Shown: positions 10,067 to 57,947, counted from the stretch's first letter. The stretch is DNA of 64,000 bases from an uncultured bacterium (GCA_965603355.1 CBFDCQ010000001.1:42350-106349); one strand, 5' to 3'. The notes: generated by a model from the sequence alone, not told the origin. Translations and numbers: made by a program.

Positions 10067-10088
10067 GGCCCCGGAGGTACGGGAGCTG

Positions 10089-21482: not shown

Positions 21483-21774
21483 CAACTCGACGTCGAGAAC
21501 CCCGTTGGGGGGATTGGGAGGGTCCAAATAGCTTCTCCGTTATCCAGAGCGGACGCCTACCGTGGAGAACGCTGTGGGGCAAGCTGATGATGGAGTCCGG
21601 CAGTCTCAGTACAGCCCGCGATGAATTCAGTACGCACTCGGCGCGTGGCAAGCGCAAAGAACAGTCATTTCCGCAAGAGTGCGCTTCTTCGAGAGATCTC
21701 TTTCTTGCATCGCGATTCCCGCGTGATCTTCTGATGATCGGTCGAGGGACGATACAGAATTGAGGAGAATAGCC

Positions 21775-27898: not shown

Positions 27899-27913
27899 CC
27901 TTCTGGCGTAGCG

Positions 27914-27936
27914 TTTTTCCCCGCCAAGGGGAAAAA
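27914..27936 (+). promoter_or_regulatory. inverted repeat: candidate enhancer (UAS) for the NtrC-type activator, or a terminator hairpin
   Basis: TTTTTCCCC-gccaa-GGGGAAAAA (9-bp arms) lies 16 nt after the regulator stop and about 125-140 bp upstream of the sigma-54 -24/-12 element. Confidence 0.35.
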
Positions 27937-28056
27937 CTCCCCCAAAAACCTCCCCTTGTCAACCTTCGCAGGAAACTCATCCCGGGCATTGAGATCCGAC
28001 GTTAGGGCTTGTCCTGAGCCGATTTGGCCCGATGCCCACATTGCTCCAGCACCCTG

Positions 28057-28075
28057 CTGGCACAAAAAATGCTAA
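28057..28075 (+). promoter_or_regulatory. candidate sigma-54 (-24/-12) promoter
   Basis: cTGGCAC-aaaaa-aTGCt compared with the consensus TGGCAC-N5-TTGCW. The GG and GC are correctly spaced and sit about 55 nt upstream of the 28127 start. Confidence 0.5.
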
Positions 28076-28126
28076 TACTGATGAAACGAGAGGCCACAAG
28101 GACAGGATGCAAACGTTGGGGACCCA

Positions 28127-29278
28127 ATGGAGATTAGTGGTGCAACTGTCCTCGTCATTGACGACGAGGAATCGATGCGCGATTCCTGTTATCAGGCGCT
28201 GACGAAGGAGGGGTATCGTGTCGAGACGGCGGTGGACGCGGAGAGCGGCTTGCGCAAGGTGCGCGAGTTATCTCCCGACATCGTGCTCGTGGACCTCAAG
28301 ATGCCCCGCGTTGGTGGAACGGAAGTGTTGAAAGAGATAACCGCAATAGACCCGACGATCGTTGCAGTAGTGATCACGGGTTACGCAACGGTCGAATCGG
28401 CGGTCGAGGCCATGAAATGCGGCGCATACGATTTCCTTCCCAAACCTTTCACTCCGGACGAGCTCCGAATCGTCACGAAAAGAGGCCTGGAAAAGCGACG
28501 GCTGAGTGTCGAAATGGAGGCTCTTCGCAGGGAAAATGAGAGGATGAGAGAGAACTTCGTGACGGTTGTCACGCACGAAATGAGAGCGCCGCTGGTCGCG
28601 GTCGAACAGTACCTTGAAGTGATGCTGAAAGAGATGGCGGGCGATGTCACCGAGAAGCAGAAGGAGATACTCGAGCACAGTCGCAAACGAGTCGAGTGGC
28701 TGCTTACGCTGGTGAACGAATGGCTGAGCATGTCTCGCATCCAGCGGGGGAAAATAGTCGAGAGCCTCGAGACGGTAAAGATGCGGGAACTGCTCGAAGA
28801 ATCGGCCGCCCTGGTCAAGCCCCAAGCTGACGAGAAGGATATCAATATAGAGATCGAGGTGGCGAACGGAGCCGAGTCAATTGAAGGCGACATGGACGCT
28901 CTGAGCCACGTTTTCATGAATCTGGTGAGCAATGCGGTTAAGTACAACCACGAGGAAGGTTCTGTTTGCGTCAGAGCGATTGACAAGGACGATAGCATTG
29001 CCGTGGAGGTTGAGGACACGGGCGTGGGGATTCCCGAAGGTAGCTTGCCGTTCATTTTCGATGAGTTCTTCCGGGTAAAAACCGACGAAGGGCGGCGCGT
29101 GACGGGCACGGGTCTGGGATTAACGGTTGTCAAGAGGATTGTCGAGGCCCATCGCGGTCATGTGACCGTCAAGAGCGCTGTAGGACAAGGCACCACGTTT
29201 GTTGTGTTCTTACCGAAGAAGCAAACGATAGCGGAGCCGGGCATGGCAGAGAAGACCGGCAGCGTGAGTGAATCATAA
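28127..29278 (+). CDS. hybrid response-regulator/histidine kinase (REC, HisKA, HATPase_c) with no sensor or TM domain
   Basis: REC segment VLVIDDEESMRD...VLVDLKMPRVGG, a coiled coil, H-box VVTHEMRAPLVAVEQY, N-box NLVSNAVKYN, and G-boxes DTGVGI and GTGLGLTVV. Its stop overlaps the start of the next gene (TAATG). Confidence 0.85.
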   Translation: MEISGATVLVIDDEESMRDSCYQALTKEGYRVETAVDAESGLRKVRELSPDIVLVDLKMPRVGGTEVLKEITAIDPTIVAVVITGYATVESAVEAMKCGAYDFLPKPFTPDELRIVTKRGLEKRRLSVEMEALRRENERMRENFVTVVTHEMRAPLVAVEQYLEVMLKEMAGDVTEKQKEILEHSRKRVEWLLTLVNEWLSMSRIQRGKIVESLETVKMRELLEESAALVKPQADEKDINIEIEVANGAESIEGDMDALSHVFMNLVSNAVKYNHEEGSVCVRAIDKDDSIAVEVEDTGVGIPEGSLPFIFDEFFRVKTDEGRRVTGTGLGLTVVKRIVEAHRGHVTVKSAVGQGTTFVVFLPKKQTIAEPGMAEKTGSVSES

Positions 29279-30333
29279 TGAATACGCGGTTCATCTCTGA
29301 AGGCAATTTTGTCAGACTACTGGATCATCTGGCCGAACGCGGTCGAGTGTTCGTGGCGGAGCCGGTCGAGGACACCGGAAAGATAGCTTTTCGCGCCCGT
29401 CAAGAGGGTGAGGGTTTCGATTACACCGGTTTTCGCGCGACCCAGTCGCTCAAACCGTTCTTGTTTGTTGCGAGAGAGAAGGTGGCGGAATATCCCTGCG
29501 CGGCTGGGTCCGAGACGGTTCCTGCTGCGGAGCACGTGACCGTGGTAGGGGCGGCGGCGTGCGACCTTGCGGCGTTGAAGACCCTCGACGCAGTCTTCAT
29601 CTCTGAGGATTTTACGGACTGTTTCTATGCGGAGCGGAGGGCAAACACGCTGATCATCAGCATGGAGTGCACGGATCCACGCGACAGCTGTTTTTGCACG
29701 CTCATCGGCAATAAGCCGTATCCGGAAGCCGGATATGACCTGAACCTGGCGAAGGCCGGTGCCGGATATGTCGTCGAGGTGGGGTCCGAGAAGGGAGAAA
29801 GCCTCATCGGTGAACAGGCGTCTCTGTTTAAAGATGCCTCTAAGGAAACGCTCGCCGCGCGGGACAAGGCTCGCGAAGAGGCGGCGCGTCGAGTCGAGGA
29901 TATCAATCGCGGCGTTGAAGTGAGCAGGTCGCGACAAGAGATCCTGAAGCACGCTCCGGAAGATGAGGAATGGCACTCTCACGTGCAAACCTGCGTCGAG
30001 TGTGCAGCCTGCCTCTTCTGCTGTCCGACGTGTCACTGCTTCTTGCTTTACGACCAGAAGGGCGCGGAGAACTTCGAGCGGTTGAAGGTCTGGGACGCCT
30101 GTGTGTATGCAGGATACTCGCGCATGGCGGGTGGCGGGACGCCTAGAGCGTTTCTCGTGGAACGGTTCAGACACCGCTACGCGCACAAGTTCGACCAGAT
30201 TGTCGAGAGGCACGGTATTGAAGGTTGTTCGGGCTGCGGCAGGTGCATAGAAGCCTGTCCCGGCAACATTGACATGCGCAAAGTGTTCAAAGCCCTTGAC
30301 TCTGCGGCGTTAACCGAGAAGGTTGCGAGATGA
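29278..30333 (+). CDS. HydB/AsrA-like 4Fe-4S protein (sulfhydrogenase beta / anaerobic sulfite reductase A family)
   Basis: Cys clusters CVECAACLFCCPTCHCF and CSGCGRCIEACPG. The N-terminal 'ratio' domain and the 351 aa length fit HydB/AsrA-type subunits. Confidence 0.7.
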   Translation: MNTRFISEGNFVRLLDHLAERGRVFVAEPVEDTGKIAFRARQEGEGFDYTGFRATQSLKPFLFVAREKVAEYPCAAGSETVPAAEHVTVVGAAACDLAALKTLDAVFISEDFTDCFYAERRANTLIISMECTDPRDSCFCTLIGNKPYPEAGYDLNLAKAGAGYVVEVGSEKGESLIGEQASLFKDASKETLAARDKAREEAARRVEDINRGVEVSRSRQEILKHAPEDEEWHSHVQTCVECAACLFCCPTCHCFLLYDQKGAENFERLKVWDACVYAGYSRMAGGGTPRAFLVERFRHRYAHKFDQIVERHGIEGCSGCGRCIEACPGNIDMRKVFKALDSAALTEKVAR

Positions 30334-31145
30334 ACAATCTGTATTCCCCGATTCAGGCGCAAATCGAGGAAATCATAAAAGAGACGCCGACCAACAAGAC
30401 GTTCGTCATTCGGCCGGAAGCGCCGATACGTTTCAAGGCGGGCCAGTTCATGCAGCTCACGGTACCAGGCATGGGCGAGGCGCCGTTCACCCCCTCATCG
30501 TCGCCGGCCGTGACCGAGAAGATGGAGATCACCATACTCAAGACCGGCACGGTGACCGATGTGCTCCACACGATGCAAGCGGGAGATAACGTCGGATTGC
30601 GCGGCCCGTTCGGGAAAGGCTACCCGCTGGACAAGTTCGAGAACAAGGAGGTCCTGGTGGTCGGTGGCGGAGTGGGACTGGCCCCTCTGAGATCACTGAT
30701 TCTGGCTATGTTCGAGGATATGGGAAAGTATAAGCGGCTCTCGATAAAATATGGTGCGAAGACGCCGGAGGAGCTGCTTTTCAGGACGAGTTTCGACGAA
30801 TGGTCCAAGAAGCCGCAAACGGATCTTACCGTAACCATCGACGTTCCGGCGCCCGGATGGGAGGGCAAGGTAGGGCTCGTCACGAGCCTGCTGGACGATG
30901 TCGACGTGGACAAGCCCAACAGCTATGTCGTCTCCTGCGGGCCGGGCATCATGCTGCGGTTCGTGACGTATAAGCTTCTCGAAATCGGATTCGAGCCGGA
31001 ACAGATATACTTGTCGATGAACAGGAAAATGAGCTGCGGTGTCGGCAAGTGCGGCAGATGCGAGGTCGGACCGTACTATCTATGCAAAGACGGTCCGGAT
31101 ATGAACTACGCGAAGATTAAGGACGTGCCAAACGTTTTCAGTTGA
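30330..31145 (+). CDS. HydG/AsrB/PyrK-like FAD/NAD(P)H-binding oxidoreductase with a C-terminal [2Fe-2S] site
   Basis: FAD-binding barrel (RFKAGQFMQLTVPGMGEAPFTPSS), nucleotide-binding GGGVGLAPL, and a C-terminal C..CGVGKCGRCEV cluster motif. 4-nt overlap with the upstream gene. Confidence 0.8.
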   Translation: MNNLYSPIQAQIEEIIKETPTNKTFVIRPEAPIRFKAGQFMQLTVPGMGEAPFTPSSSPAVTEKMEITILKTGTVTDVLHTMQAGDNVGLRGPFGKGYPLDKFENKEVLVVGGGVGLAPLRSLILAMFEDMGKYKRLSIKYGAKTPEELLFRTSFDEWSKKPQTDLTVTIDVPAPGWEGKVGLVTSLLDDVDVDKPNSYVVSCGPGIMLRFVTYKLLEIGFEPEQIYLSMNRKMSCGVGKCGRCEVGPYYLCKDGPDMNYAKIKDVPNVFS

Positions 31146-31169
31146 GGGAACCTCGAACAGGTAGTTGAG

Positions 31170-32588
31170 ATGGTTGAGTCAAGAAAAAACATTTGCCTTC
31201 TCTGCTCGCTCGGTTGCGGCCTGATAGTTGATCTGGAATGCGACGAGCCGGTCAACCTCGAGTATGACACGGAAAATGGCGTGAACCGAGGCAAACTGTG
31301 CGCGAAAGGTAATTACATTCTGGAGCTGCTGAACGACCCCTTGCGTCTTGATGTGCCCAAGAAAGACGGCAAACCGATCAGGTGGGAACAGGCGGCAGAT
31401 GAGGTGGCGGATGCCCTGCGTGCCGTTCAGGGCGGCAAGACTGCGGCCGTCGTGCTCTCCGGTGATGCGTCGTGCGAGGACGTCGGGTTGGCCTTTGCGT
31501 TTGCAGCCGATTGCACCGGAGCCGGCAAAGCTGCGATAAGTCTCCCCACCGGCGACGATAAGGTGGTGTCAGCACTCGCGGAAACGTCCGGCGGCGTTGC
31601 GCAGGCCACTCTGGACGATGTCGAGAACTCCGTGTGCACGATCGCCGTGGGGGATCCGTTTGCCAGATGTCCCGTTATAGCCGGGAGAGTTCTTGCCGCG
31701 CGAAATGCGGCCCGCGAGAACTCTCTCAACGTGGTCTCTCGAGAGAGCAACATGACGTCGCGGTTCGCTGCGACCCACCTCCTTGGACCCGAGCGAGATA
31801 GCATGCTGGATCTTGTTGCCGCAGTGGTGGAGGCGCGGGGCGGCGCGAAGGAAAAGTGGTTGAATCAACTGGTCAAGGGCGTGGATGCCGGTTCGGACGC
31901 GCAGAAATTGGCGAAGAGCTTCGTTGAGTCCGAGCGGGCGGTAGTGGTGTTGTCCACGGACGATCCGGTGGTCGCACAACTGGCGAACGCTCTCGTCAAG
32001 GCTGCCGGCGACACGAAGGGACTTTTCGCGCTGCACGATTACGGTAACGCGCGCAGTATTGCGGAGATTTCATCCGGTGACGTTTCGGCCGAGGACGTGA
32101 TCAAGTCTGCGGCCCGTGGGGAGATAGAGGTTCTGCTCGTACTGGGGGCAGATCTCGTGTCGTCATATCCGAACCTGGATGTGAACGGAGCGCTGTCTGA
32201 AGTGCAACTGCTTGTTGCGGGAGCACCGTTTCCGAACAAGACGACATCTCTGGCCGGCATGGTTCTGCCGACTGCGCTGTGGATCGAGCAGGATGGCACG
32301 TTCAATGGTGCTCAATGCCAGCGGGTCGTCGCCCCACCTGGAGGTGCAATGTCGTATGGCGACATACTGAAGGCCGTCGCCAAAGCGACGGGCGTTGAGT
32401 TGCGTGCACACGAAGCGCCAGAAGCGCTCGCGGAAGCGGCCCTTGACGAGGGCAAGGCGGCGGCAATTGCTAAAGCGGCTCGCGAGGAGGCAGTGACATC
32501 ACCCGTCGTGTCGACGGCAACGTGTTTTGCGGACGGTTCCCTAACGGACAGAGTGAGTTGGGTTAAGATGGTAGAAAGAGTTCCGTGA
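31170..32588 (+). CDS. FdhA/NuoG-like molybdopterin-oxidoreductase-family protein, short form (472 aa)
   Basis: N-terminal 4Fe-4S motif CLLCSLGCGL...C-x3-C (CAKGNY) typical of the MopB Fe4S4 domain, then the start of a MopB-like domain (PIRWEQAADEVADAL). About 250 aa shorter than catalytic FdhH/FdhA. Confidence 0.6.
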   Translation: MVESRKNICLLCSLGCGLIVDLECDEPVNLEYDTENGVNRGKLCAKGNYILELLNDPLRLDVPKKDGKPIRWEQAADEVADALRAVQGGKTAAVVLSGDASCEDVGLAFAFAADCTGAGKAAISLPTGDDKVVSALAETSGGVAQATLDDVENSVCTIAVGDPFARCPVIAGRVLAARNAARENSLNVVSRESNMTSRFAATHLLGPERDSMLDLVAAVVEARGGAKEKWLNQLVKGVDAGSDAQKLAKSFVESERAVVVLSTDDPVVAQLANALVKAAGDTKGLFALHDYGNARSIAEISSGDVSAEDVIKSAARGEIEVLLVLGADLVSSYPNLDVNGALSEVQLLVAGAPFPNKTTSLAGMVLPTALWIEQDGTFNGAQCQRVVAPPGGAMSYGDILKAVAKATGVELRAHEAPEALAEAALDEGKAAAIAKAAREEAVTSPVVSTATCFADGSLTDRVSWVKMVERVP

Positions 32589-33077
32589 ATGAAGAAGCTG
32601 TTTGTAGATCTCGATCTCTGCATAGGATGTCAAGCACATAGCGTCGCCTGCAGTCGCGTAAACCACGACATCCTGACGATGCAGAGCGGCGAGATACCGG
32701 AGGAAGGCACGCTGCCTGTCGTGTGCAGACACTGCGAGACCGCCGCGTGCGTCGCTGCTTGTCCGAACGAGTCGATGAAGAAGCACGAGGACGGCATCGT
32801 TAGGAGAAACATGGCGACATGCACCGGCTGCATGAGCTGTACGCTGGCGTGCCCGTTCGGGACGCTGACTCGCGGCATGAGACTGGCCCGGCACTCGTCG
32901 AGCAAGTGCGACCTGTGCGCGCCGAGGGTAGAACGCGGGCTTGAACCCGCCTGCGTTGCGACGTGTCCCACAAGCGCGCTACAGTTTAGAGAGGTTGAAG
33001 AGGTCTACGAGGCGAAAGACGTTCTCGTGGTGGGAGCACATACAATCGGACATAGCCCGTACATAAGGAGAGCCTAG
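32589..33077 (+). CDS. HycB-like poly-ferredoxin (4x [4Fe-4S])
   Basis: CIGCQAHSVAC, CRHCETAACVAACP, CTGCMSCTLACP and CDLCAPR...CVATCP. Size and cysteine spacing match HycB/HyfA. The ATG overlaps the previous stop. Confidence 0.8.
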   Translation: MKKLFVDLDLCIGCQAHSVACSRVNHDILTMQSGEIPEEGTLPVVCRHCETAACVAACPNESMKKHEDGIVRRNMATCTGCMSCTLACPFGTLTRGMRLARHSSSKCDLCAPRVERGLEPACVATCPTSALQFREVEEVYEAKDVLVVGAHTIGHSPYIRRA

Positions 33078-33096
33078 CGGGAGAAGCCCGCGTGAA

Positions 33097-34035
33097 TTGG
33101 TGAGGATGATGAGTGCATTTGGCGTACCATATTTCCTGGCTGTGTTCGCCGTAACGGCTGTTGTAGGACTGGTGACGAGCTGGGTGGACAGAAAAGTCAC
33201 CGCGCGGGTGCAAGCGCGGGTTGGTCCGCCGTGGTTCCAACCGTTTGCGGATTTCGTGAAGCTGCTAGGCAAAGAGACGCTCGTGCCCGAAGGCAGCCGT
33301 CAGAAAGGCTTCCTCGTCGCGCCGCTGTTGGCACTCGTTGGCGTGTCGCTTGGCGCGGCGGCGCTCGTGTCAGGAGGTGTACTTGGCAAGGAAGGCTTTA
33401 TCGGAGACATAGTAGTTGTGCTGTACCTGCTCACGATACCGTCAGCGGCGCTGATACTCGGCGCGGCCTCGACCGGCAACCCTATGGCGTCTGTCGGGGC
33501 GAGTCGCGAGATGAAGCTCATACTCGCGTACGAGCTGCCGTTCCTTATCGTAGTGCTTACGGCCGTGTACAAAGCGCAGGCCGGTTTCATGATCGACAAG
33601 ATCGTGGACTACCAGGCTCAGAACGGCGCGTTCATATGGAGCATTTCGGGAGTCATCGGGTTCATCGTTGCGATACTGTGCATTCAGGGCAAGCTGGGGT
33701 TGGTGCCGTTTGACGCGCCGGAGGCTGAGCAGGAGTTGATGGGCGGTGTTCTTACAGAGTACTCCGGCGTCCCGCTGGCGCTGTTCAAGCTCAGCAAAGC
33801 GATGATGCTGAGCGTTCTGACAGTCTTTCTGGCGGTCATATTCTTTGGCGGAATGCAATTCAAGGGCATCGATATCCTGTGGAGTATCTTGAAGTATCTC
33901 GTGCCGGTAGTGCTGGTGGTCTTGATCAGAAACACGAACCCGAGGTTGAGGATTGACCAGATAATGAAGCTGTTCTGGGGTCCGCTTACGGTGCTGGCCC
34001 TGATCGCTCTGTTGCTGGCAAGGTTCAACCTCTGA
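33097..34035 (+). CDS. membrane subunit NuoH/HycD/MbhM-like
   Basis: Polytopic membrane protein, 312 aa, with a conserved NuoH-like segment (GLVPFDAPEAEQELMGGVLTEYSG). Confidence 0.85.
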   Translation: MVRMMSAFGVPYFLAVFAVTAVVGLVTSWVDRKVTARVQARVGPPWFQPFADFVKLLGKETLVPEGSRQKGFLVAPLLALVGVSLGAAALVSGGVLGKEGFIGDIVVVLYLLTIPSAALILGAASTGNPMASVGASREMKLILAYELPFLIVVLTAVYKAQAGFMIDKIVDYQAQNGAFIWSISGVIGFIVAILCIQGKLGLVPFDAPEAEQELMGGVLTEYSGVPLALFKLSKAMMLSVLTVFLAVIFFGGMQFKGIDILWSILKYLVPVVLVVLIRNTNPRLRIDQIMKLFWGPLTVLALIALLLARFNL

Positions 34036-34055
34036 TCTTTATGGAGTGAAGCGTT

Positions 34056-34487
34056 ATGAGCGTTAAGATGTGGGGACTGAAGAAGTCGCCCTGGGTGTAC
34101 CACGTAGCGCTGTCACCCTGCAATAACTGCGACATAGAGATACTCGACCTGCTGACTCCGAGATTCGATGTGGAACGTTTTGGAATAAAGCTCGTGGGCA
34201 GTCCCAGACACGCTGACGCCCTGCTTGTTACCGGATCCGTAAACCGGCACGTTCTCCCCAGGTTTGTCGAGCTATACAAGCAGACGGCGAAACCGTGCGT
34301 GGTGTTCGCGATAGGCTCCTGCGGTCTGTCATCGACTATGTTCAGAGATAACTACAACATCGTCGGCCCCATTGACAAGGTCGTGAGACAGATCGATCCT
34401 AACGCCATCATCGCGTACGTGCCGGGATGTCCGCCAAAACCGGAGGCGATGATCTCCGGAGTGGTCAAGGCGCTGAGCGTGTTATAG
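34056..34487 (+). CDS. [NiFe]-hydrogenase small subunit, NuoB-like (HycG/MbhJ/EchC-type)
   Basis: SPCNNCDIE (compare HycG SCNGCEIE), GSCG and GCPPKPE provide the four Cys of the proximal [4Fe-4S]. Confidence 0.85.
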   Translation: MSVKMWGLKKSPWVYHVALSPCNNCDIEILDLLTPRFDVERFGIKLVGSPRHADALLVTGSVNRHVLPRFVELYKQTAKPCVVFAIGSCGLSSTMFRDNYNIVGPIDKVVRQIDPNAIIAYVPGCPPKPEAMISGVVKALSVL

Positions 34488-34499
34488 GAGAGGTGAAGT

Positions 34500-34955
34500 A
34501 TGAGTGGTAGCGTCGCGCTGACAGCGGTCAAAGAGAGCATGCCGGCAAAGATTTTGGAAATCGTGGAGAGATCTCCCGCGCGCGCATACGTATACATTGC
34601 GCCGGAGGAGATAGTCGCAGCGTCGCGGTTCATGTTCGAGGAGTGCGGTGTGCGGCTCGCCACGGTGTCCGGTGTAGACACGAGGAGCGGCATCGAGCTG
34701 GTTTACCATTGGATGAGCGCGAAGGACCATCAGTTCATCATGATCAAGACAAAAGTCAAGAAACCGTTCCCGGAAATAGACTCGGTCGGCTCGTTTCTGC
34801 CGGCGGCGGTTTGGATTGAGAGGGAAATCCACGACATTCTGGGTGTGGTTTTCAGAGGGCACCCTGATTTCAGGAAACTCATTCTTTCAGATGATTGGCC
34901 TGAGGGAATCCACCCCTATAAGCGCGGCGTGAGATTCGGGGAGTTTAAGGCATGA
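34500..34955 (+). CDS. NuoC-like subunit (MbhK/EchD-type)
   Basis: 151 aa NuoC/30-kDa-subunit fold (LVYHWMSAKDH...WIEREIHDILGVVFRGHPD). Overlaps the large-subunit gene by 4 nt. Confidence 0.8.
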   Translation: MSGSVALTAVKESMPAKILEIVERSPARAYVYIAPEEIVAASRFMFEECGVRLATVSGVDTRSGIELVYHWMSAKDHQFIMIKTKVKKPFPEIDSVGSFLPAAVWIEREIHDILGVVFRGHPDFRKLILSDDWPEGIHPYKRGVRFGEFKA

Positions 34956-36184: not shown

Positions 36185-36234
36185 GGGCGGTCGCCTCTGG
36201 CGACCTGCGCCCTCGCGAGGGTGGAACAAATAGA

Positions 36235-38064
36235 ATGAACTTGCTCCTTTATCCGATACTGGTTCCGCTTGCGGGCGGACTGTTGGCGCTACTGATGCCG
36301 CGTGCGCTCAAGGGGTTGAGAGAGCTGGTCTGCATTGTGGCGACCGGCGCGACAGTCTACCACGCCGCGCAGATAGTGAGGATAAGCAGCCTCGGCGAGC
36401 GCCTTGACTTCTCACGTCCCTGGTTGAGCATAGAGAACTTCGTGTTCTCGATTAGCCTGCGCGCGGACGCGCTTAGCCGGTTCATCGTCCTGGCTGCCTC
36501 CATATTCGGGCTGCTAATTGTCCTGTACTCCATAGGATATATGAGGAACAAGGACAGGCTCCCCGAGTATTACGCTTACATTGTCTGGACAGTCGCCGCG
36601 GCTAACGCCGCATTGCTGGCGGATAACCTCATACTGCTGCTCGTTTCGTGGGAAGTGGTCACCGTGCTGCTGTTCTTCCTAATCACGATAGCCGGCGAAG
36701 GGTCGCCGCCGGCCGCCGGGAAGACTTTTGTAATGATCGGTGCGGCGGACTGCGCCATGCTGCTCGGAATAGTCCTCATTTGGCGGGTGATGGGCACTCT
36801 CGAGATCAGTGCATTGAGACACGTACCGATGCAGACCGGTATGATGCATCTGATTTACGCGCTTCTGCTTGCCGGGGCAATTACAAAAGCGGGCGCTATG
36901 CCGGGCCATTCCTGGATACCGAAAGCGGCGGAGATTGCGCCGACATCTGTCATGGCGTTTCTGCCGGCGGCGCTCGACAAGCTGCTCGGCATCTATCTGC
37001 TCGCCCGCATGTCGCTATACATGTTCGCGCCCAGCGAGGCAATGAAGCTGGCGCTGCTTATCATAGGCGCTGTCACTATCATATTGGCAGTGATGGCGGC
37101 CCTCGTGCAACACGAGCTCAAGAAGCTTCTGTCCTGTCACGCAGTAAGCCAGGTCGGCTACATGGTAATGGGTATCGGAACCGGCGTCCCGCTCGGCATC
37201 ATTGGCGGCCTTTTCCACATGTTGAACAACGCAATCTACAAATGTTGCCTGTTCCTGACCGCCGGCGCCGTCGAACGTAAAGCGGGTACCACTGAGCTTG
37301 AGAAGCTCGGTGGACTTGCCTCGGCAATGCCCGTCACGTTCGGCGCATGCGTGATCGCGGCGTTAGCCATCTCCGGAGTGCCGCCGCTCAATGGGTTCGC
37401 GTCCAAATGGTTCGTCTACCAGGGGGTGCTCCAGGTTGGTCGTCCGGTGTTCGTCGTGGCGGCGATGTTCGGCAGCGCGCTGACGCTTGCGTCGTTTATA
37501 AAGGTCATCTATTCGGTGTTCCTCGGCAAGCGCCCGGAATCGCTCCGTTCCATCAAGCCGGTAGGTTTCTCGATGACTTTTCCGATGATCTTCCTCGCGC
37601 TATTGTGCATAGTATTCGGTGTATTCTACCATCTACCAGTCAAACAGTTCATAGCCCCCGCGCTCGGAAGTCAGGCGCTGGTATTACCGCAACTTGGATT
37701 GTGGGACTCGACTCTTGCTACCGGGCTGATCGTTATTGGGCTCGTGATCGGGATCATCATCTATCTGTTTGGGACGGCCTTCAAAGGGCGCACCACGTCT
37801 ATCTTCGTGGGCGGCGAGACACTGGACGAGGAAGAGAGCCGCGTACCTGGCACGGGCTTTTACGAGACGGTAACCTCCATGCGCGGTCTCGGCACGATCT
37901 ATCGGGACGCGGAACAGGGTGCGTACGACCTGTACGTGCTTGGGGCACGGTACGGACAGAAGATCGTTGACGTGTTCAGGGGAATGCATACGGGTATAGT
38001 GTCGACGTACGTCGCTTTTTGCGTGGCTGGACTTGGCATAATACTGTTCTTACTGTTGAGGTAA
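36235..38064 (+). CDS. Mrp/NuoL-family antiporter-like subunit (MrpA/MbhH-like), 609 aa
   Basis: About 16 TM helices and conserved NuoL/MrpA segments (WEVVTVLLFFLI, HAVSQVGYMVMGIG). Confidence 0.85.
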   Translation: MNLLLYPILVPLAGGLLALLMPRALKGLRELVCIVATGATVYHAAQIVRISSLGERLDFSRPWLSIENFVFSISLRADALSRFIVLAASIFGLLIVLYSIGYMRNKDRLPEYYAYIVWTVAAANAALLADNLILLLVSWEVVTVLLFFLITIAGEGSPPAAGKTFVMIGAADCAMLLGIVLIWRVMGTLEISALRHVPMQTGMMHLIYALLLAGAITKAGAMPGHSWIPKAAEIAPTSVMAFLPAALDKLLGIYLLARMSLYMFAPSEAMKLALLIIGAVTIILAVMAALVQHELKKLLSCHAVSQVGYMVMGIGTGVPLGIIGGLFHMLNNAIYKCCLFLTAGAVERKAGTTELEKLGGLASAMPVTFGACVIAALAISGVPPLNGFASKWFVYQGVLQVGRPVFVVAAMFGSALTLASFIKVIYSVFLGKRPESLRSIKPVGFSMTFPMIFLALLCIVFGVFYHLPVKQFIAPALGSQALVLPQLGLWDSTLATGLIVIGLVIGIIIYLFGTAFKGRTTSIFVGGETLDEEESRVPGTGFYETVTSMRGLGTIYRDAEQGAYDLYVLGARYGQKIVDVFRGMHTGIVSTYVAFCVAGLGIILFLLLR

Positions 38065-38072
38065 CGCAGACC

Positions 38073-38627
38073 ATGATATTCTTGCTATATTTGCTGCTCC
38101 TTTTCATGATCGCCGGCGCGATAATCGCCATTGAGACGAAAGACCTGCTCTCGAGCGTGATATGTGTAGGCGCGATCGGACTGGGACTGGCAATAATCTT
38201 TCTGTTGCTTGGCGCACCTGACCTCGCCATCGTACAAGTAGTCGTGGAGGTTCTCAGCCTCGTGTTGCTGCTGCGCGTGGTGGTTAAGCGTGAGGACGTT
38301 ACCATCGCTCACCGGTACAGGTATGGCGAGGTGTTCGCGACCGCGACCGCGCTCGTGTTTTTCGGCGTATTCATTGTGCTGGCCTCCATGGCCTACAAGG
38401 AAATGCCGGCGTTTGGTCAACCGATCCTCAATGTATCGCAGCGTTACATCGCGGAGGGTATGGACAAGGTGGGAGCGCCAAACCTCGTCACAGGGATCTT
38501 GCTGGATTACCGCGCCTACGATACCCTCGGTGAGGCAACAGTTATTTTCACAGCAATCATTGGCAGTTTGGTCATCCTGAGAAAGAGAGGCAGGATACGT
38601 CATGAAGGGGATGAGCCTCATAGTTAG
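38073..38627 (+). CDS. small Mrp-module membrane subunit (MbhD/MrpB-N-like)
   Basis: ATG with RBS GAGG directly after the MrpA-like stop. Hydrophobic 184 aa protein, and the only subunit type of the Mbh/Mrp set otherwise unassigned here. Confidence 0.55.
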   Translation: MIFLLYLLLLFMIAGAIIAIETKDLLSSVICVGAIGLGLAIIFLLLGAPDLAIVQVVVEVLSLVLLLRVVVKREDVTIAHRYRYGEVFATATALVFFGVFIVLASMAYKEMPAFGQPILNVSQRYIAEGMDKVGAPNLVTGILLDYRAYDTLGEATVIFTAIIGSLVILRKRGRIRHEGDEPHS

Positions 38628-39033
38628 GACTATAACCCGGCTGCTTGTCGGGTTCATTCTCGTGTACGGCGCCCACATCGTGCTGTACGGGCATCTGACG
38701 CCGGGCGGCGGTTTTGCCGGCGGCGTTATGCTGGCGTGTGCACTGATACTTCTCGTCCTGGCTTTCGGCAAGGAAGCGGCGCTGGATATCGTGAGCGAGA
38801 ATGCCGCATCGGCGTGGGACTGCATAGGAGCTCTTCTGTTCCTGCTTATAGCCCTGCTTGGGCTGACGGGAGGCTATTTCTTCAGGAACGTCCTCGACAA
38901 GGGCAAACCGTTCGACCTGCTCAGTGCAGGGACTCTTATGTGGAGCAATATCGCGATCGGGATCAAGGTAGGCGCGTGCTTGTTCCTGGTATTTCTGGTG
39001 CTGGCGGCCTTCAGGATACGCGACGAAGGGTAG
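38602..39033 (+). CDS. MnhB/MrpB-domain subunit (MbhE-like)
   Basis: MrpB hallmark HLTPGGGFAGGVMLA and four TM helices. Confidence 0.7.
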   Translation: MKGMSLIVRTITRLLVGFILVYGAHIVLYGHLTPGGGFAGGVMLACALILLVLAFGKEAALDIVSENAASAWDCIGALLFLLIALLGLTGGYFFRNVLDKGKPFDLLSAGTLMWSNIAIGIKVGACLFLVFLVLAAFRIRDEG

Positions 39034-39040
39034 GGAAGCG

Positions 39041-39385
39041 ATGGGACCGTATATTCTGTGTTCGATAATTCTCTTGCTCGGTGTGTACGCTGTCGTGGCG
39101 AAGAAGAACCTGATAAAGATCATCATTGGACTCCTTATCATCGAGTACGCCGTGAATCTTATGCTTGTGCTCATCGGATACAGGGCCGGCGGAGAAGCTC
39201 CGATACGTACGGAGGCAGCTCAGGATGCGGCCCGTATCTTGGTCGATCCGCTACCGCAGGCGCTGATCGTAACCTCGATAGTCATCGGTCTCGGATTGAC
39301 CGCGATGGTGGTGGCATTGTGCATTCGACTATACGAGAAGTACGGCACGTTTGACGTGCTTCTCATCAGAAGGTTGAGAGGATGA
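39041..39385 (+). CDS. MnhC/MrpC (NuoK-like) subunit
   Basis: 114 aa with three TM helices and a NuoK-like pattern (IIIGLLIIEYAVNLMLVLIGY). Confidence 0.8.
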   Translation: MGPYILCSIILLLGVYAVVAKKNLIKIIIGLLIIEYAVNLMLVLIGYRAGGEAPIRTEAAQDAARILVDPLPQALIVTSIVIGLGLTAMVVALCIRLYEKYGTFDVLLIRRLRG

Positions 39386-40881
39386 ATGATAATCACGTTC
39401 TGCCGTTGTTTGTAGCCCTGCCGTTAGGGGCAGCGTTTCTCATCGTGCTCGTTGGCAGGTTGCGTGAGTCGCTCTCGGATCTCCTGGGCACGCTGATTGC
39501 GGCGATTCTGGTGGTCTGCTCCCTGCAACTGGTCGGCGCACCGGAGCAGGTGTACCACATGGGAGGGTGGGAGCCGCCGCTGGGCATCAACCTGGTCTCA
39601 GACGCGCTGAGCACGCTCCTGCTGGTTATCGTCAGCAGCGTCAGCTTGCTCGTGTGCATCTATTCGATCACCTATATGAAGGGTTACACCAGCAAACCGA
39701 AGTACTACGGCCTTTTGATGCTGATGATAGCGGGTATGAACGGCGTAGTGCTGACCGGCGACCTGTTCAACATGTATGTGTTCCTTGAAATCGCTGCAAT
39801 CGCATCGTACGCGCTTGTGGCGTTCGGCACTGAGCATGAAGAACTAGAAGCTTCGTTCAAGTATCTCGTGCTCGGAAGTGTAGCCTCGAGTTTCATCCTT
39901 TTCGGAATAGCTTTAATGTATAGCGCAACAGGTACGTTGAATCTCGCTGACATCGCGAACACAATCGACAAGAACGGGCTCAACGCCGTCATGACTATGG
40001 CCTCGGCAATGTTCATAGCCGGTTTCGGGCTTAAGGCGGCCATGGTGCCGTTCCACGCCTGGTTGCCGGACGCACATCCATCTGCGCCCGCGCCCATATC
40101 GGCCATGCTTTCCGGGCTGCTGATCAAGGCGCTTGGCGTGTACGCTCTGGTAAGGCTGTTCTACAGCGTAATCGGCGTTGGCGGAATGTATACGAACATA
40201 CTGATCGGCCTTGGAATCCTGTCAATGGTGGTAGGGGTAATTCTTGCGGTAGGCCAGTGGGATTTCAAGCGGCTGCTCGCCTATCACAGCATAAGCCAGA
40301 TGGGATACGTCATGCTCGGCGTGGGCCTCGGCACTCCGCTCGCGTTGGCGGGAGCGTTGTTTCACCTGCTCAACCACAGCATGTTCAAATCCTTGCTGTT
40401 CCTGTGCTCCGGTGCGGTTGAGCACAGCACGGGTACGCGCCGACTGAAGGAACTTGGCGGGCTATGGTACAGAATGCCTGTGACCGGTACAACCTGTTCT
40501 GTTGCATCCCTATCGATTTCTGGAGTCCCGCCGTTCAACGGCTTCTGGAGCAAACTCCTGATCATCGCCGGGGCCGTACAAGCGGCGGACCGGTTTGGTC
40601 CTGTGGCATACGTACTCGCGGCCATCACTGTGCTCGTGAGTTTCCTTACGCTTGTATCCTTTGTCAAAGTGCAGCGTTACGTTCTCTTCGGAGCGTTGTC
40701 GGAGAAGCTGAAGAAGATACGGGAAGTTCCGGCGGCGATGTGTATCGCGCTTGTCGCGTTCGCGATACTGTGTCTCGCGCTGGGTGTTTTCTGTCCGTTC
40801 GTTCTGGAAAAGCTGATCTATCCCGCGCGGGACGTCGTGCTGGATAAAGCCGGTTATATAGGTCTGGTACTGGGGAAATAG
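39382..40881 (+). CDS. MnhD/MrpD (NuoM/N-like) antiporter subunit
   Basis: 499 aa polytopic protein with conserved MrpD/NuoN segments (FHAWLPDAHPSAPAPISAMLSG, LAYHSISQMGYVMLGVG). Confidence 0.85.
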   Translation: MNDNHVLPLFVALPLGAAFLIVLVGRLRESLSDLLGTLIAAILVVCSLQLVGAPEQVYHMGGWEPPLGINLVSDALSTLLLVIVSSVSLLVCIYSITYMKGYTSKPKYYGLLMLMIAGMNGVVLTGDLFNMYVFLEIAAIASYALVAFGTEHEELEASFKYLVLGSVASSFILFGIALMYSATGTLNLADIANTIDKNGLNAVMTMASAMFIAGFGLKAAMVPFHAWLPDAHPSAPAPISAMLSGLLIKALGVYALVRLFYSVIGVGGMYTNILIGLGILSMVVGVILAVGQWDFKRLLAYHSISQMGYVMLGVGLGTPLALAGALFHLLNHSMFKSLLFLCSGAVEHSTGTRRLKELGGLWYRMPVTGTTCSVASLSISGVPPFNGFWSKLLIIAGAVQAADRFGPVAYVLAAITVLVSFLTLVSFVKVQRYVLFGALSEKLKKIREVPAAMCIALVAFAILCLALGVFCPFVLEKLIYPARDVVLDKAGYIGLVLGK

Positions 40882-40897
40882 AACGAGGTTAGACCTG

Positions 40898-41383
40898 ATG
40901 AGACGGATCGTACATTTCATTGTAGCTCTGATTGTCTGGCTACTGCTCACGTGGAGCGTGACCGTCCAGAACGTGATTGCCGGCGTCATCGTCGCGGCCC
41001 TGAGCGCAGCGCTGTTCGGTCACTTTTTCCCGAGTGACTCGAGGCTCATGCTGAATTTCAGCCGAGTCTTGTGGTTCCTTTACTACATCCCCGTGTTTCT
41101 GATTCACTGCTTCAAAGCCAACCTGGATGTCGCGTACCGAGTGCTGCACGTGAACGTGCCTATACGCCCCGGCATTGTGAGGGTTAAAACGACGCTCAAG
41201 AGCGATATGGCGTTGACATTCCTGGCAAACTCCATAACGCTGACGCCCGGCACGCTGACGGTGGACATCATCGGTAATGACATGTACATCCACTGGATAA
41301 ACGTGGCCAGCGACGATCCGGAAGAACAGACGCTTATTATCGTGAAGAGGTTTGAGGATATTCTCAAGAGGGTGTTCGAGTAA
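40898..41383 (+). CDS. MnhE/MrpE (MbhA-like)
   Basis: 161 aa with two N-terminal TM helices and an MrpE-like C-terminal domain. Confidence 0.7.
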   Translation: MRRIVHFIVALIVWLLLTWSVTVQNVIAGVIVAALSAALFGHFFPSDSRLMLNFSRVLWFLYYIPVFLIHCFKANLDVAYRVLHVNVPIRPGIVRVKTTLKSDMALTFLANSITLTPGTLTVDIIGNDMYIHWINVASDDPEEQTLIIVKRFEDILKRVFE

Positions 41384-41652
41384 TGATGATTACCGCACCG
41401 CTGCTATTCATGGCCCTGCTCGTGTTCTCGTCCTTCCTGTGCCTTTACAGAATAGGTGCCGGACCCACTGCGCCCGACCGCACGGTAGCGATCGACATTC
41501 TCGGCACGCTCGTGGTGGGCTTCTGCGCGATCATGACGTGGCAAACAGGCAAGGCGTTCTACATGAACATAGCAATAACATGGGCGCTGCTCAGTTTCAT
41601 AGGCACAATAGCGCTGGCCAAATACCTGGAGGGGCGTGGATTCGATGAGTGA
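41383..41652 (+). CDS. MnhF/MrpF (MbhB-like)
   Basis: 89 aa with three TM helices (ALLVFSSFLCLYRI...). Overlaps its neighbours. Confidence 0.7.
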   Translation: MMITAPLLFMALLVFSSFLCLYRIGAGPTAPDRTVAIDILGTLVVGFCAIMTWQTGKAFYMNIAITWALLSFIGTIALAKYLEGRGFDE

Positions 41653-41998
41653 AACCGTGGGGTTGGTCATAATCGTCGTGGGCGTCCTGTTTGATCTGCT
41701 CGGTTGCATAGGACTGGTTCGTCTTCCAGACATATACAACAGGCTTCAGGCGGCCACAAAGTGCGTGACGCTCGGTACGTGCATGATACTTGTCGGTGTA
41801 GCGATCAAGATCGGGGTCGGGGAGGGCGGCGCTAAAGCGATCATCTGTGCCATCTTTGTTCTGCTCACGTCCCCAGTTGGAGCACACGCACTGGCGCGCG
41901 CGGCCCACAAGTCCGGGATAAGACTCTGGGAGGGCAGTGTGGTTGACAAGTACCTTGAAGTGGATTCCGGCAAGGAGGTCCCTGGAGCTAAGGTGTAA
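41636..41998 (+). CDS. MnhG/MrpG (MbhC-like)
   Basis: 120 aa with an MrpG N-terminus (GLVIIVVGVLFDLLGCIGLVRLPDIYNRLQA). Confidence 0.75.
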   Translation: MDSMSETVGLVIIVVGVLFDLLGCIGLVRLPDIYNRLQAATKCVTLGTCMILVGVAIKIGVGEGGAKAIICAIFVLLTSPVGAHALARAAHKSGIRLWEGSVVDKYLEVDSGKEVPGAKV

Positions 41999-42001
41999 CA
42001 T

Positions 42002-42613
42002 ATGAAGAAACCGAAGTTAAGAGAGCTTGGCGAAGCGTTAAAGGTCTTATTCATTGAAGGACCGTATACTTCCAAGTTTCCGAAAGAACCATACATACCA
42101 CCGGAGACATTCAAAGGCAAACCGCAGTATGACGAGGAGAAGTGTATCGGTTGCGGAGCCTGCGCCCAGGTGTGTCCGGCGCGCGCGATAGAGATCATTG
42201 ACGACACGGAAACCGGCAAACGAAAGCTGGCGCTGCGTTATGACATCTGCATCTTCTGCGGTCAGTGTCAAGCGTATTGCACGACCAAGGACGGGATAAC
42301 GCTCAGCAACGAGTACGATCTGGCAACCCTGGACCGGAGCGGTACCGTGGAGACCGTCGAGAAAGACCTTGTCATGTGCGAGGTGTGCGGTTCAGTTGTC
42401 GGCGCGCTCGACCATCTATGTTGGATTAGCAATAGGCTGGGCACATTGGCCTACGCGAATCCCTCGTTGATTCTCGCCTCGTTGAGCAAGTTGTCCCTGG
42501 CAGAAACAGGTACCCCACGCAGTAAGGAGGTAATACCGGCCAGGTCTGACTTGCTCAGGGTTCTGTGCCCAACGTGTAGGCGCGATATTTACCTCAAGGA
42601 GGAATGGAAATAG
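42002..42613 (+). CDS. NuoI-like 2x[4Fe-4S] ferredoxin subunit (MbhN/HycF-type)
   Basis: CIGCGACAQVCP and CIFCGQCQAYC, plus a C-terminal Cys-rich extension (CEVCGS...CPTC). Confidence 0.8.
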   Translation: MKKPKLRELGEALKVLFIEGPYTSKFPKEPYIPPETFKGKPQYDEEKCIGCGACAQVCPARAIEIIDDTETGKRKLALRYDICIFCGQCQAYCTTKDGITLSNEYDLATLDRSGTVETVEKDLVMCEVCGSVVGALDHLCWISNRLGTLAYANPSLILASLSKLSLAETGTPRSKEVIPARSDLLRVLCPTCRRDIYLKEEWK

Positions 42614-42706
42614 CGGCGTCTCGTTCTCGATCGAATGGAGTTGTGCGGGAAAACCATCGGCGGTTCTTTCCGCAGGGAGTTTTGCAGCCAAGAGGGGGTG
42701 TTTGAA

Positions 42707-43105
42707 GTGAGCGCGAACCCGAAAAGAATCCTAATCGTTGATGACGATCAGGATATAGTAGATTCCGTAACCATCATGCTCCAGTCTGAGGGATATGATG
42801 TGGTCGCCGCAAGGGGCGGCGAGGACTGCATGAAGATTGTCGGGGAGAAACGTCCCGACCTTATCCTGCTCGATATAATGATGGAAAAACTCACGACGGG
42901 ACTCCACGTCGGATACGAGTTGCGGAAGCATCCCGAGTATAAGTCGATCCCGATCATCATCATGTCTGGCATCGGAGAAGCGACGGGTCTCGATCTCGCC
43001 GCTGAAAAGGAAACCGACTATATCGCCGCGGATGAATTTCTCGAAAAACCGGTCAACCCGGAAGTCCTGCTGAAACGAGTCGCCGAGTTGACACAGGCAA
43101 GCTGA
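42707..43105 (+). CDS. stand-alone response-regulator receiver (CheY-like)
   Basis: GTG start with RBS AGAGGGGG. Receiver segment ILIVDDDQDIVD...LILLDIMMEKLTTG, plus a conserved Ser and Lys. Confidence 0.7.
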   Translation: MSANPKRILIVDDDQDIVDSVTIMLQSEGYDVVAARGGEDCMKIVGEKRPDLILLDIMMEKLTTGLHVGYELRKHPEYKSIPIIIMSGIGEATGLDLAAEKETDYIAADEFLEKPVNPEVLLKRVAELTQAS

Positions 43106-50219: not shown

Positions 50220-50241
50220 CCCTCTTGCTTGCTCTCTGCCA

Positions 50242-53095: not shown

Positions 53096-53135
53096 AGCTC
53101 ACCCCTCTCGGTTCGTCCCGTCGATTCTCCTCGGA

Positions 53136-55218: not shown

Positions 55219-55598
55219 AGTTGAAGCCGCTCCGCGACGAGCGTCGTCAGCACGTACTCCTTCTCGCGCCCGCGCTCGTTCCAGGTAACCAGAATACGCA
55301 ATAACATCAACCCAACCTGATCCGTGTCCTCGATATCGTAGCTCCACGAGTGACGTGGGTACTCCTGGCCGAAGTCGCCGCTGTCGCTGCTCGCGTAAAG
55401 CTCTCCCTCGGCGATCACCTCCTCGACAAGCCCTTGCGCCAGGTAGACGGCCTGCGTGTGGGCGAGCGATGCCGAGGTGGATTGCAGGCACGTCGTGAAC
55501 AGCTCCATCGTGCCCAGCACACCGATTCCGAAGATGGTCAGCGCAGCAACCATTTCGACCAGTGAATATCCTCCCGACCGGCGCCTGCGCATCATCAT
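55215..55598 (-). CDS. gspI: T2SS minor pseudopilin GspI-like
   Basis: MMMRRRRSGGYSLVEMVAALTIFGIGVL prepilin-type N-terminus. 127 aa. Confidence 0.7.
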   Translation of the reverse strand: MMMRRRRSGGYSLVEMVAALTIFGIGVLGTMELFTTCLQSTSASLAHTQAVYLAQGLVEEVIAEGELYASSDSGDFGQEYPRHSWSYDIEDTDQVGLMLLRILVTWNERGREKEYVLTTLVAERLQL

Positions 55599-56612: not shown

Positions 56613-56614
56613 TC

Positions 56615-57829: not shown

Positions 57830-57947
57830 TTGCTGTCTCCACTAGTAGGCCTTGTAGATATGAATCAGACCGTCCCCCATACAGTTGCGCGCGTCACACG
57901 CCAGGCGGTTCACGGCGAAGTTCTGCACGCTGCTCCGCCGCACATGC

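Follow-up and report, generated by a model that had tools for sequence, protein, structure and literature searches.

What is encoded by a compact string of 20 genes that joins a [NiFe] hydrogenase to Mrp-type antiporter subunits, which electron donor might it use, and how might it be controlled? The string lies in a 64,000-nt stretch of DNA (GCA_965603355.1 CBFDCQ010000001.1:42350-106349), which we term the window and in which coordinates are counted from the first letter. We find that the string is a real, intact operon, and its gene order and motifs assign it to an already described family of group-4 hydrogenases, Hun, of which it is a further member. Taken together with its regulatory genes, on balance it probably encodes a Hun-type respiratory [NiFe] hydrogenase that is linked to reduced nicotinamide adenine dinucleotide (phosphate), NAD(P)H, coupled to ion movement, and controlled by sigma-54 and two-component proteins.

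Open reading frames (ORFs) of the window were assigned by Pfam and NCBIfam searches. A preliminary description of this DNA had read about 20 genes here; all 20 + strand ORFs were found where it placed them, as one string across 28127-43105, and domain hits (Pfam/NCBIfam) agree with each assignment. Junctions range from a 46-nt overlap up to a 50-nt gap, and simple scans for sigma-70-like promoters and terminators inside the string gave no excess over shuffled sequence. We place the operon end at 43105, because the next gene (43146-45236, SLT/TPR, - strand) is convergent. The string sits behind a consensus sigma-54 promoter (28058), directly 3' of genes for a Cache sensor kinase and an NtrC-type activator. 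Hun letters A-P were assigned by gene order to the 16 core subunits, to which the optional molybdopterin-like subunit is added. The features, in order, are as follows.

24599-26536, + strand: sensor histidine kinase, dCache/sCache_3 - HAMP - HisKA - HATPase (Pfam), first of the upstream two-component pair
26537-27898, + strand: NtrC-type sigma-54 enhancer-binding regulator, REC - AAA+ Sigma54_activat - HTH_8 (Pfam Sigma54_activat 1.9e-65)
27913-27937, no strand: perfect 10-nt inverted repeat, GTTTTTCCCC-N5-GGGGAAAAAC, just after the NtrC stop codon
28058-28073, + strand: putative sigma-54 (-24/-12) promoter, TGGCAC-N6-TGCT, TGGCACAAAAAATGCT (pattern scan)
28127-29278, + strand: REC-HisKA-HATPase hybrid kinase, cytoplasmic, without sensor domain, operon gene 1 (Pfam; H-box THEMRAPL)
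29278-30333, + strand: HunA, sulfhydrogenase beta/AsrA-like poly-[4Fe-4S] protein, Fer4_22, 18 Cys (NCBIfam ShyB 1e-44, HydB 5e-43, AsrA 2.5e-36)
30330-31145, + strand: HunB, sulfhydrogenase gamma/AsrB-like, flavin adenine dinucleotide (FAD) + NAD(P)H + [2Fe-2S] (NCBIfam AsrB 5.8e-66, HydG 2.1e-51)
31170-32588, + strand: molybdopterin-oxidoreductase-like protein, 472 aa, Molybdop_Fe4S4 + Molybdopterin, domains I-III only (Pfam)
32589-33077, + strand: HunC, HycB/CooF-like poly-ferredoxin, four Cys groups (Pfam Fer4_11 5.2e-20)
33097-34035, + strand: HunD, NuoH/MbhM/HycD-like membrane anchor of the hydrogenase module (Pfam NADHdh 3.6e-68)
34056-34487, + strand: HunE, NuoB-type hydrogenase small subunit (Pfam Oxidored_q6 2.1e-22)
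34500-34955, + strand: HunF, NuoC/MbhK-like (Pfam Complex1_30kDa 2e-25)
34952-36184, + strand: HunG, [NiFe] hydrogenase large subunit, NuoD-like (motifs; PDB matches to MbhL and HycE)
36235-38064, + strand: HunH, MrpA/NuoL-type antiporter-like, 609 aa (Pfam Proton_antipo_M 2.4e-55, Proton_antipo_N; NCBIfam)
38019-38627, + strand: HunI, MbhD + MbhE-like membrane subunit (Pfam MbhD 7.7e-18, MbhE 6.1e-8)
38602-39033, + strand: HunJ, MnhB/MrpB-like (Pfam MnhB 3.8e-26)
39041-39385, + strand: HunK, MrpC/NuoK-like (Pfam Oxidored_q2 4.7e-22)
39382-40881, + strand: HunL, MrpD/NuoM-N-type second antiporter-like subunit (Pfam Proton_antipo_M 2.4e-74)
40898-41383, + strand: HunM, MrpE-like (Pfam MNHE 1.7e-41)
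41383-41652, + strand: HunN, MrpF-like (Pfam MrpF_PhaF 1.6e-17)
41636-41998, + strand: HunO, MrpG-like; the start may be ATG 41645 (Pfam PhaG_MnhG_YufB 1.6e-26)
42002-42613, + strand: HunP, NuoI/HycF-like 2x[4Fe-4S] ferredoxin (NCBIfam formate hydrogenlyase Fe-S subunit 1.1e-30)
42635-43105, + strand: CheY-like single-domain receiver, last operon gene (Pfam Response_reg 1.5e-21)

The 16-subunit Hun supercomplex (Ni-Fe hydrogenase - Na+/H+ antiporter) was named by Glass et al. (bioRxiv 10.1101/536078). They describe AsrAB-like HunAB, a ferredoxin HunC, a hydrogenase module of HunD-G plus HunP, and Mrp-like HunH-O, with an optional molybdopterin-domain protein between HunB and HunC; CGIC-CYCC are given as the distinguishing large-subunit motifs, and group 4g as the HydDB classification. 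Gene order in the window matches the published hun order (AsrA-, AsrB-, optional molybdopterin-, HycB-, NuoH-, NuoB-, NuoC- and NuoD-like, eight Mrp-like, NuoI-like), and the CGIC/CYCC of its HunG are the published diagnostic. We file the locus as Hun-type because it has exactly the 16 genes, the optional protein and these motifs.

Others have met the same operon. Matheus Carnevali et al. (PMC6349859) reported it in Saganbacteria (RX5A) as an 'enigmatic' Mrp-linked group-4 hydrogenase, with Mrp-like subunits, cooF, asrA, asrB and a molybdopterin oxidoreductase not identifiable as formate dehydrogenase, and with its closest relatives in Zixibacteria and Omnitrophica. Meheust et al. (10.1101/765248) use the name 'Mbh-Mrp-oxidoreductase type', with its function given as unknown, and Bird et al. 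(PMC6469976) describe an Atribacteria hydrogenase complex co-transcribed with the adjacent oxidoreductase. Mrp-linked group 4g enzymes are recorded in papers on Ace Lake Omnitrophota and on Cloacimonadota, and the carriers named in the literature also include Elusimicrobia, Atribacteria and Kosmotoga. The preliminary description had held that the HydBG-like pair belongs to no described group-4 operon; this was mistaken, since the same operon has been published (10.1101/536078, PMC6349859, 10.1101/765248). The identical order is thus described, but it is not biochemically characterised.

We scanned for the large subunit in one genome per species, obtaining at least 585 matching stretches, and analysed the best 80 by mapping the window proteins onto them; hun loci are labelled L001 etc., L001 being the closest species-representative locus. 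HunG of the window is 61-71% identical to those of the best 80 of the at least 585 relatives, whose hosts are Omnitrophota, Planctomycetota, Bacteroidales, Margulisiibacteriota/Saganbacteria, Zixibacteria, Latescibacterota, Clostridia, Elusimicrobiota and others; loci in this identity range with hun synteny come from phyla named by Glass et al. A HydG/AsrB-like gene (HunB) stands upstream of the core in 66/66 loci with enough upstream sequence, and the synteny extends across all informative related loci and many phyla. The HydB/AsrA-like gene (HunA) was also detected in 65 of the 66, that of L046 being below threshold. The HycB-NuoHBCD-Mrp-NuoI string is present wherever the contig permits, 13 loci being truncated and one broken by a scaffold gap. 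Metagenome protein space holds at least 6,833 large-subunit clusters (90% identity) at E <= 1e-100. The nearest named relatives, at 70-73% identity, are in metagenome-assembled genomes of Latescibacterota, Planctomycetota and Anaerolineae, and proteins identical to those of the window occur on at least 16 metagenome contigs of up to 183 kb. The hun arrangement is a widespread, conserved operon type.

Relatives also help in placing two start codons. The true start of HunD may be 33106, as the Joint Genome Institute start in L084 is 9 nt downstream, and that of HunI, which corresponds to the MrpA C-terminus plus the MrpB N-terminus, is likely ATG 38073, a 184-aa product being called in both L085 and L086. 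Two departures from the usual layout were seen. L051 and L070 have the NuoI-like gene directly after the large subunit and the Mrp-like genes, which show lower identity, later, a rearranged operon variant. L072 has a second, divergent HydB/HydG-like pair (28% and 43% identity) ahead of the regular HunA/HunB, a duplicated input module.

HunG keeps both large-subunit motifs intact, RICGICSTSH (L1) and DPCYCCTER (L2). Its C64, C67, C353 and C356 coincide exactly, in alignments, with the CxxC pairs of Pyrococcus furiosus MbhL (6cfw_L) and Escherichia coli HycE (7z0s_E), so that all four Ni-Fe cysteines, whose loss had been considered as grounds for rejecting a hydrogenase, are kept. These two are also the closest solved relatives in a PDB search (MbhL 5e-87, HycE 2.1e-85), and HunG is about equally distant from MbhL (group 4d) and HycE (group 4a). 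Across 81 HunG family members L2 reads DPCYCCTER in 64 and DPCYSCTER in 17. The 51 aa that follow CTER can be aligned with the C-terminal tail of HycE (MAVVD vs MTVVD), which in E. coli is removed by the HycI protease; all 81 family members have a C-terminal tail, of 31-59 residues in 78 of them, while three ORF calls ran on. HunE has four cysteines for the proximal [4Fe-4S] cluster (C22, C25, C89, C125), conserved in the family, and the NuoH-, NuoC- and NuoI-like partners of a group-4 hydrogenase are all in the operon. By these alignments the large subunit belongs to a genuine group-4 [NiFe] hydrogenase, and with eight Mrp/Mbh subunits its Mrp-type module is full, as first read.

The two ferredoxin-like subunits show further cysteine patterns. 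HunC residues 11-21 are CIGCQAHSVAC (CxxCxxHxxxC), with Cys replacing His in most orthologues; given this His in its first motif, the cluster may be His-ligated or 3Fe. HunP has a C-terminal extension, CxxC...CPxC, whose C126, C129, C189 and C192 are conserved over 51 orthologues; the HycF profile match ends at residue 147. Zn or an additional Fe-S/rubredoxin-like centre could be bound there.

The case for the donor turns on HunA and HunB. Both are full-length matches, with Cys motifs in register, to subunits of P. furiosus sulfhydrogenase I, HunA to beta (9nez_B, 5e-40) and HunB to gamma (9nez_C, 4.8e-51). Conservation across 66 HunB orthologues is among the highest at APFTPSS (FAD), GGGVGLAP (nucleotide) and the 2Fe-2S cysteines. 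Homology and motifs both favour the NAD(P)H-type HydB/HydG-like input module originally proposed. The sulfhydrogenase beta/gamma pair is an NADP(H) diaphorase, and the membrane-bound hydrogenase (MBH) of P. furiosus takes ferredoxin without such a module. NAD(P)H seems likelier than ferredoxin as donor, because HunAB resembles a diaphorase pair, while MBH needs none for ferredoxin. An NAD(P)H-linked, ion-translocating enzyme is plausible from these homologies, and better supported than the published ferredoxin model.

In that published model, proposed in the paper naming Hun (10.1101/536078), the complex is a ferredoxin-dependent, H2-evolving, Na+/H+-translocating Mbh-like enzyme, with HunA, HunB and HunC only wiring ferredoxin electrons to the Ni-Fe site. 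HydDB likewise annotates group 4g, which it treats as uncharacterised, as 'ferredoxin-coupled (putative)'. The closest solved enzyme, MBH, is ferredoxin-dependent, and electron flow from ferredoxin to H2 is exergonic enough for ion pumping. However, the full FAD/NAD(P)H fold and motifs of HunB, strongly conserved, are hard to explain if ferredoxin is the sole donor, and the gamma subunit of sulfhydrogenase I, to which HunB is homologous over its full length, binds NADPH; moreover, in MBH the NuoI-like subunit is the proposed docking site of ferredoxin, with no extra module needed. We judge a purely ferredoxin-driven enzyme rather unlikely, though it is the strongest of the alternatives.

The molybdopterin-like subunit bears on two other readings. 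The best sequence matches of this 472-aa FdhA-like protein are formate dehydrogenase (FDH) alpha subunits, yet it scores 98.5 bits against the formate dehydrogenase model TIGR01591, whose cut-off is 666, and Pfam found no capping domain IV (PF01568) in it. In an alignment, the catalytic Cys-His of the FdhF subunit of hydrogen-dependent CO2 reductase (7qv7_S) falls on Gly128-Asp129. Among 24 metagenomic family members the former active-site position reads T-x-D, with T127 and D129 unchanged throughout, and conservation extends to the four N-terminal [4Fe-4S] cysteines; a catalytic-position Cys was found in 0/24 of these and 0/9 divergent orthologues. AlphaFold2 gave a confident molybdopterin-oxidoreductase fold (predicted local distance difference test, pLDDT, 89). 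A Foldseek search with this model did not discriminate a catalytic FDH from a NuoG-like protein, as both kinds match: FDH/Nap on the one hand and NuoG, NfnC and StnC equally well on the other, with TM-scores of ~0.7. To our knowledge NuoG, NfnC and StnC carry no molybdenum cofactor. No molybdenum-cofactor genes were found nearby in the window.

The gene for this subunit is present in 9/65 hun loci with a scorable HunB-to-HunC/HunD junction and missing in 56/65. The nine carriers and the window fall in one HunG subclade in a neighbour-joining tree, of which one member, L023, lacks the gene. Between these orthologues and the protein of the window, identity is only 24-32%, as against 64-69% for HunG of the same operons. 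Ligand loss, patchy presence and fast divergence together suggest a degenerating, non-essential Fe-S or scaffold subunit.

Could HunA/HunB, or an Asp-ligated molybdopterin-like protein, instead be a second catalytic site, so that the complex would reduce a sulfur compound or other acceptor with H2 or NAD(P)H? Sulfhydrogenase beta is linked to S0 reduction, and AsrAB feed sulfite reductase; both links speak for such a role, as do the invariant T127 and D129 at the former active site and the domain IV kept in L003 and L006. Bird et al. allow 'and/or reduce sulfur compounds' (PMC6469976). But the operon encodes no AsrC-like siroheme subunit or other catalytic partner, and the candidate molybdopterin-like site is in a subunit that is optional, fast-evolving and here without domain IV or nearby molybdenum-cofactor genes. 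We regard such a reductase as distinctly improbable. Least credible of all, and rejected here, is an Mrp-linked group 4b-like formate hydrogenlyase (FHL), in which the FdhA-like protein would oxidise formate and the HycB-like protein pass the electrons on, the resemblance drawn in the preliminary description: the FdhA-like, HycB-like, core, Mrp order does resemble FHL and Fdh-Mfh-Mnh clusters, and the Mrp-type antiporter of group 4b is in the operon, but Gly-Asp stands in place of selenocysteine (Sec)/Cys-His, domain IV is absent, 56/65 hun operons lack the gene, the operon has neither a carbon monoxide dehydrogenase (CODH) gene nor otherwise the formate dehydrogenase/CODH donor module of that group, and in a published phylogeny the homologue from Saganbacteria found no place with the formate dehydrogenases (PMC6349859).

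Control of the operon was approached through its upstream region. The pattern TGGCAC-N6-TGCW is matched once in the window, by TGGCACAAAAAATGCT at 28058, against 0.19 matches expected by chance. This site lies 69 nt 5' of the first ATG and 160 nt 3' of the activator gene, and fits the GG-N10-GC core, TGGCAC-N5-TTGCW-like, at a suitable distance to the start codon. The activator has GAFTGA (residue 220), ESELFGH and Walker A motifs, and its gene is translationally adjacent to that of the Cache-HAMP kinase; rpoN is not among the genes of the window. The kinase-activator-gap-REC-kinase-hunA layout recurs in relatives L085 and L086 (FdhA-like proteins with 76% and 61% identity to that of the window), with -24/-12 elements at the same position (TGGCAT-N6-TGCT and TGGCAC-N6-TGCG, respectively). 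A sigma-54 promoter with two-component genes is therefore plausible, resting on a unique site kept in two relatives and a GAFTGA activator upstream.

How far does this control extend in the family? A REC-HisKA-HATPase gene is in the same place in L081-L086, and a CheY-like gene follows HunP also in L001. By contrast, TGG[CT]A[CT]-N6-TGC was found within 3 kb upstream of hunA in 0/64 more distant loci, the single hit being 3.2 kb away, which argues that sigma-54 control is lineage-specific and not family-wide. REC/kinase genes adjoin hun operons in about 8 of the best 80 loci, mainly in Planctomycetota/Brocadiia, so the two-component association is recurrent but not general. The embedded two-component proteins had been described as foreign to known group-4 operons together with the HydBG pair; that pair is described, whereas REC-kinase/CheY genes and sigma-54/NtrC control were not found in the Hun literature. 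What is new here is limited to the lineage-specific sigma-54/NtrC control, the embedded REC-kinase and CheY-like genes, and the molybdopterin-like subunit without domain IV.

Some 120-145 nt separate the inverted repeat at 27913-27937 from the -24 element downstream, and L085 and L086 retain part of its sequence. It overlaps two tandem AAAAAC(C)TCCCC repeats (27932-27955). It would make a poor intrinsic terminator, as no T-run follows, and fits an enhancer better than an RNA hairpin, because it is kept as sequence and not by compensatory change.

The NAD(P)H-linked reading suggests the following mechanism. HunB would bind FAD and exchange hydride with NAD(P)H, and electrons would pass from its [2Fe-2S] cluster to the [4Fe-4S] clusters of HunA. 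From there they may go through the single [4Fe-4S] cluster of the molybdopterin-like protein, acting as a NuoG-like wire or scaffold and not as a formate dehydrogenase, and then by way of HunC, HunP and the NuoB-like HunE reach the HunG Ni-Fe site. Turnover of H+ and H2 at the HunG/HunD interface would be coupled to H+/Na+ movement via HunD and HunH-O, as in MBH and complex I. The overall reaction, NAD(P)H + H+ <-> NAD(P)+ + H2, is expected to be reversible: at low sediment H2, NAD(P)H could be disposed of as H2 at little or no gradient cost, and at high H2, NAD(P)+ could be reduced while an ion gradient is built. Expression in this organism and those close to it would start from the sigma-54 promoter, switched on by the neighbouring Cache-sensor kinase and NtrC-type activator, with the co-transcribed REC-kinase and CheY-like receiver perhaps providing feedback or a phosphorelay.

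Besides the published ferredoxin proposal, several points weigh against this picture. With E0' of about -320 vs -414 mV, making H2 from NAD(P)H costs energy under standard conditions, which leaves the direction and the sign of ion coupling uncertain. Ferredoxin could still dock at HunC or HunP, and a preference for NADH or NADPH is not readable from the HunB sequence, in which residues after the second nucleotide-domain strand vary. Asp is a metal ligand in NarG-type enzymes; the invariant Asp129 could in principle be one too, with a residual catalytic role. In the Zixibacteria-type L003 (5722-7626) and L006 (1980-3725) the molybdopterin-like protein has 581-634 aa and keeps a domain-IV-like barrel, the catalytic Cys being absent. 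There are no hyp or hycI maturation genes within the 64-kb window. We infer promoter activity at 28058 and transcription of the string as one unit from the DNA; the palindrome is a candidate enhancer (upstream activating sequence, UAS) for the NtrC-type activator, its role deduced in the same way. For the Atribacteria complex the suggested donor was 'ferredoxin or NADH' (PMC6469976), and a literature search for biochemical characterisation of Hun, or for a newer subgroup name, gave genomic descriptions only.

On the energetic point, calculation from standard potentials puts the NAD(P)H to H2 reaction at about neutral to slightly exergonic at very low sediment H2. With the H2/NAD(P) couple near equilibrium, a reversible, ion-coupled enzyme is the most economical model. 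More speculatively, and as a possibility we hold to be well short of probable, Hun enzymes in general may be ion-translocating NAD(P)H:H+ (H2:NAD(P)+) oxidoreductases, 'complex I with protons instead of quinone', in which, in the window's subclade, the degenerate FDH-like subunit would be a cofactor-less Fe-S bridge between flavoprotein and hydrogenase arm. If true, this bridge would be an independent living analogue of NuoG's supposed origin from an FHL-type ancestor, and fermenters in low-H2 sediments could shed NAD(P)H as H2 with no need of electron confurcation.

Operons of the Hun type are very common, and are called 'enigmatic' in the literature. Were NAD(P)H the donor, they would represent a major overlooked route by which, in anoxic sediments, the nicotinamide pool is connected to H2 and to the ion gradient, and as a relative of complex I Hun would be informative too. 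This locus adds little to the donor question; its value is that of a clean example with regulatory wiring attached. That wiring (Cache kinase, NtrC-type activator, sigma-54 promoter, REC-kinase and CheY-like receiver) could point to the inducing signal.

Elsewhere in the window, a gene for an 851-aa clostripain-family (Peptidase_C11) protein at 21760-24315 lies directly 5' of the Cache kinase gene, and L085 has the same neighbour. A Bat-type 'aerotolerance' cluster occupies 2173-10889 (MoxR AAA+ ATPase, DUF58, an unassigned 363-aa ORF, BatA-like VWA, second VWA, TPR, BatD, TPR-SH3). On the - strand, 47334-59618 holds a type II secretion-like cluster, with a GspD secretin containing multiple Secretin_N repeats and M-, K- and F-like type II secretion system (T2SS) proteins; several ORFs interspersed in it had no Pfam match. 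The window also encodes HtrA, MgsA, peptide and Bmp ABC transporters, and a lipid A acyltransferase.

Among known systems the published Hun supercomplex is the closest, sharing the same 16 genes and order, the optional 4Fe-4S molybdopterin-domain protein and the CGIC/CYCC motifs, and its hosts are alike, being uncultured anaerobes of sediment and subsurface. The window's copy differs in having, like L085 and L086, a REC-histidine kinase as first gene, a sigma-54 promoter and an adjacent Cache-kinase/NtrC pair; in ending with a CheY-like receiver, as in L001; and in having a molybdopterin-like subunit without domain IV. Its input module is read here as NAD(P)H-linked, whereas the naming paper (10.1101/536078) proposes ferredoxin.

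P. furiosus MBH (group 4d, 6cfw) offers the best solved match to the large subunit and has a NuoB/C/D/H/I-like module plus a membrane module derived from Mrp; for MBH and Hun alike, the working model is H2 evolution with ion translocation. It differs in its L2 motif, CLSC as opposed to CYCC in the window. MBH has 14 subunits, one of them antiporter-like, is not known to have HunA/B/C or a molybdopterin-like subunit, and takes electrons directly from ferredoxin. E. coli FHL-1 (group 4a, 7z0s/7z0t) and Thermococcus Fdh-Mfh-Mnh (group 4b) share with Hun a peripheral arm with a molybdopterin-fold subunit and a HycB poly-ferredoxin; the HycE tail of FHL-1 aligns with that of HunG, and Mrp is also present in group 4b. 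In FHL, however, FdhF is a catalytic Sec/Mo enzyme with domain IV, while the window's protein lacks both the ligand and the domain, and FHL has no HydB/HydG-like module.

Sulfhydrogenase I (group 3b, 9nez/9nf0) has in its beta and gamma subunits full-length homologues of HunA and HunB that share their FAD, NAD(P)H, 2Fe-2S and poly-4Fe-4S motifs; there they serve a soluble group-3 dimer, whereas HunAB would be attached to a membrane-bound, ion-coupled group-4 enzyme. Complex I (NuoEFG on NuoBCDHI) shares the core fold and the antiporter-like membrane arm, and likewise joins a nicotinamide-oxidising flavoprotein to the core via a molybdopterin-fold Fe-S subunit without catalytic residues, NuoG being among the fold matches of the window's protein. 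The flavoproteins differ, that of the window being FNR/PyrK-type (FAD) and that of complex I NuoF-type (flavin mononucleotide, FMN), as do the acceptors: for Hun, H+ at the Ni-Fe site; for complex I, quinone.

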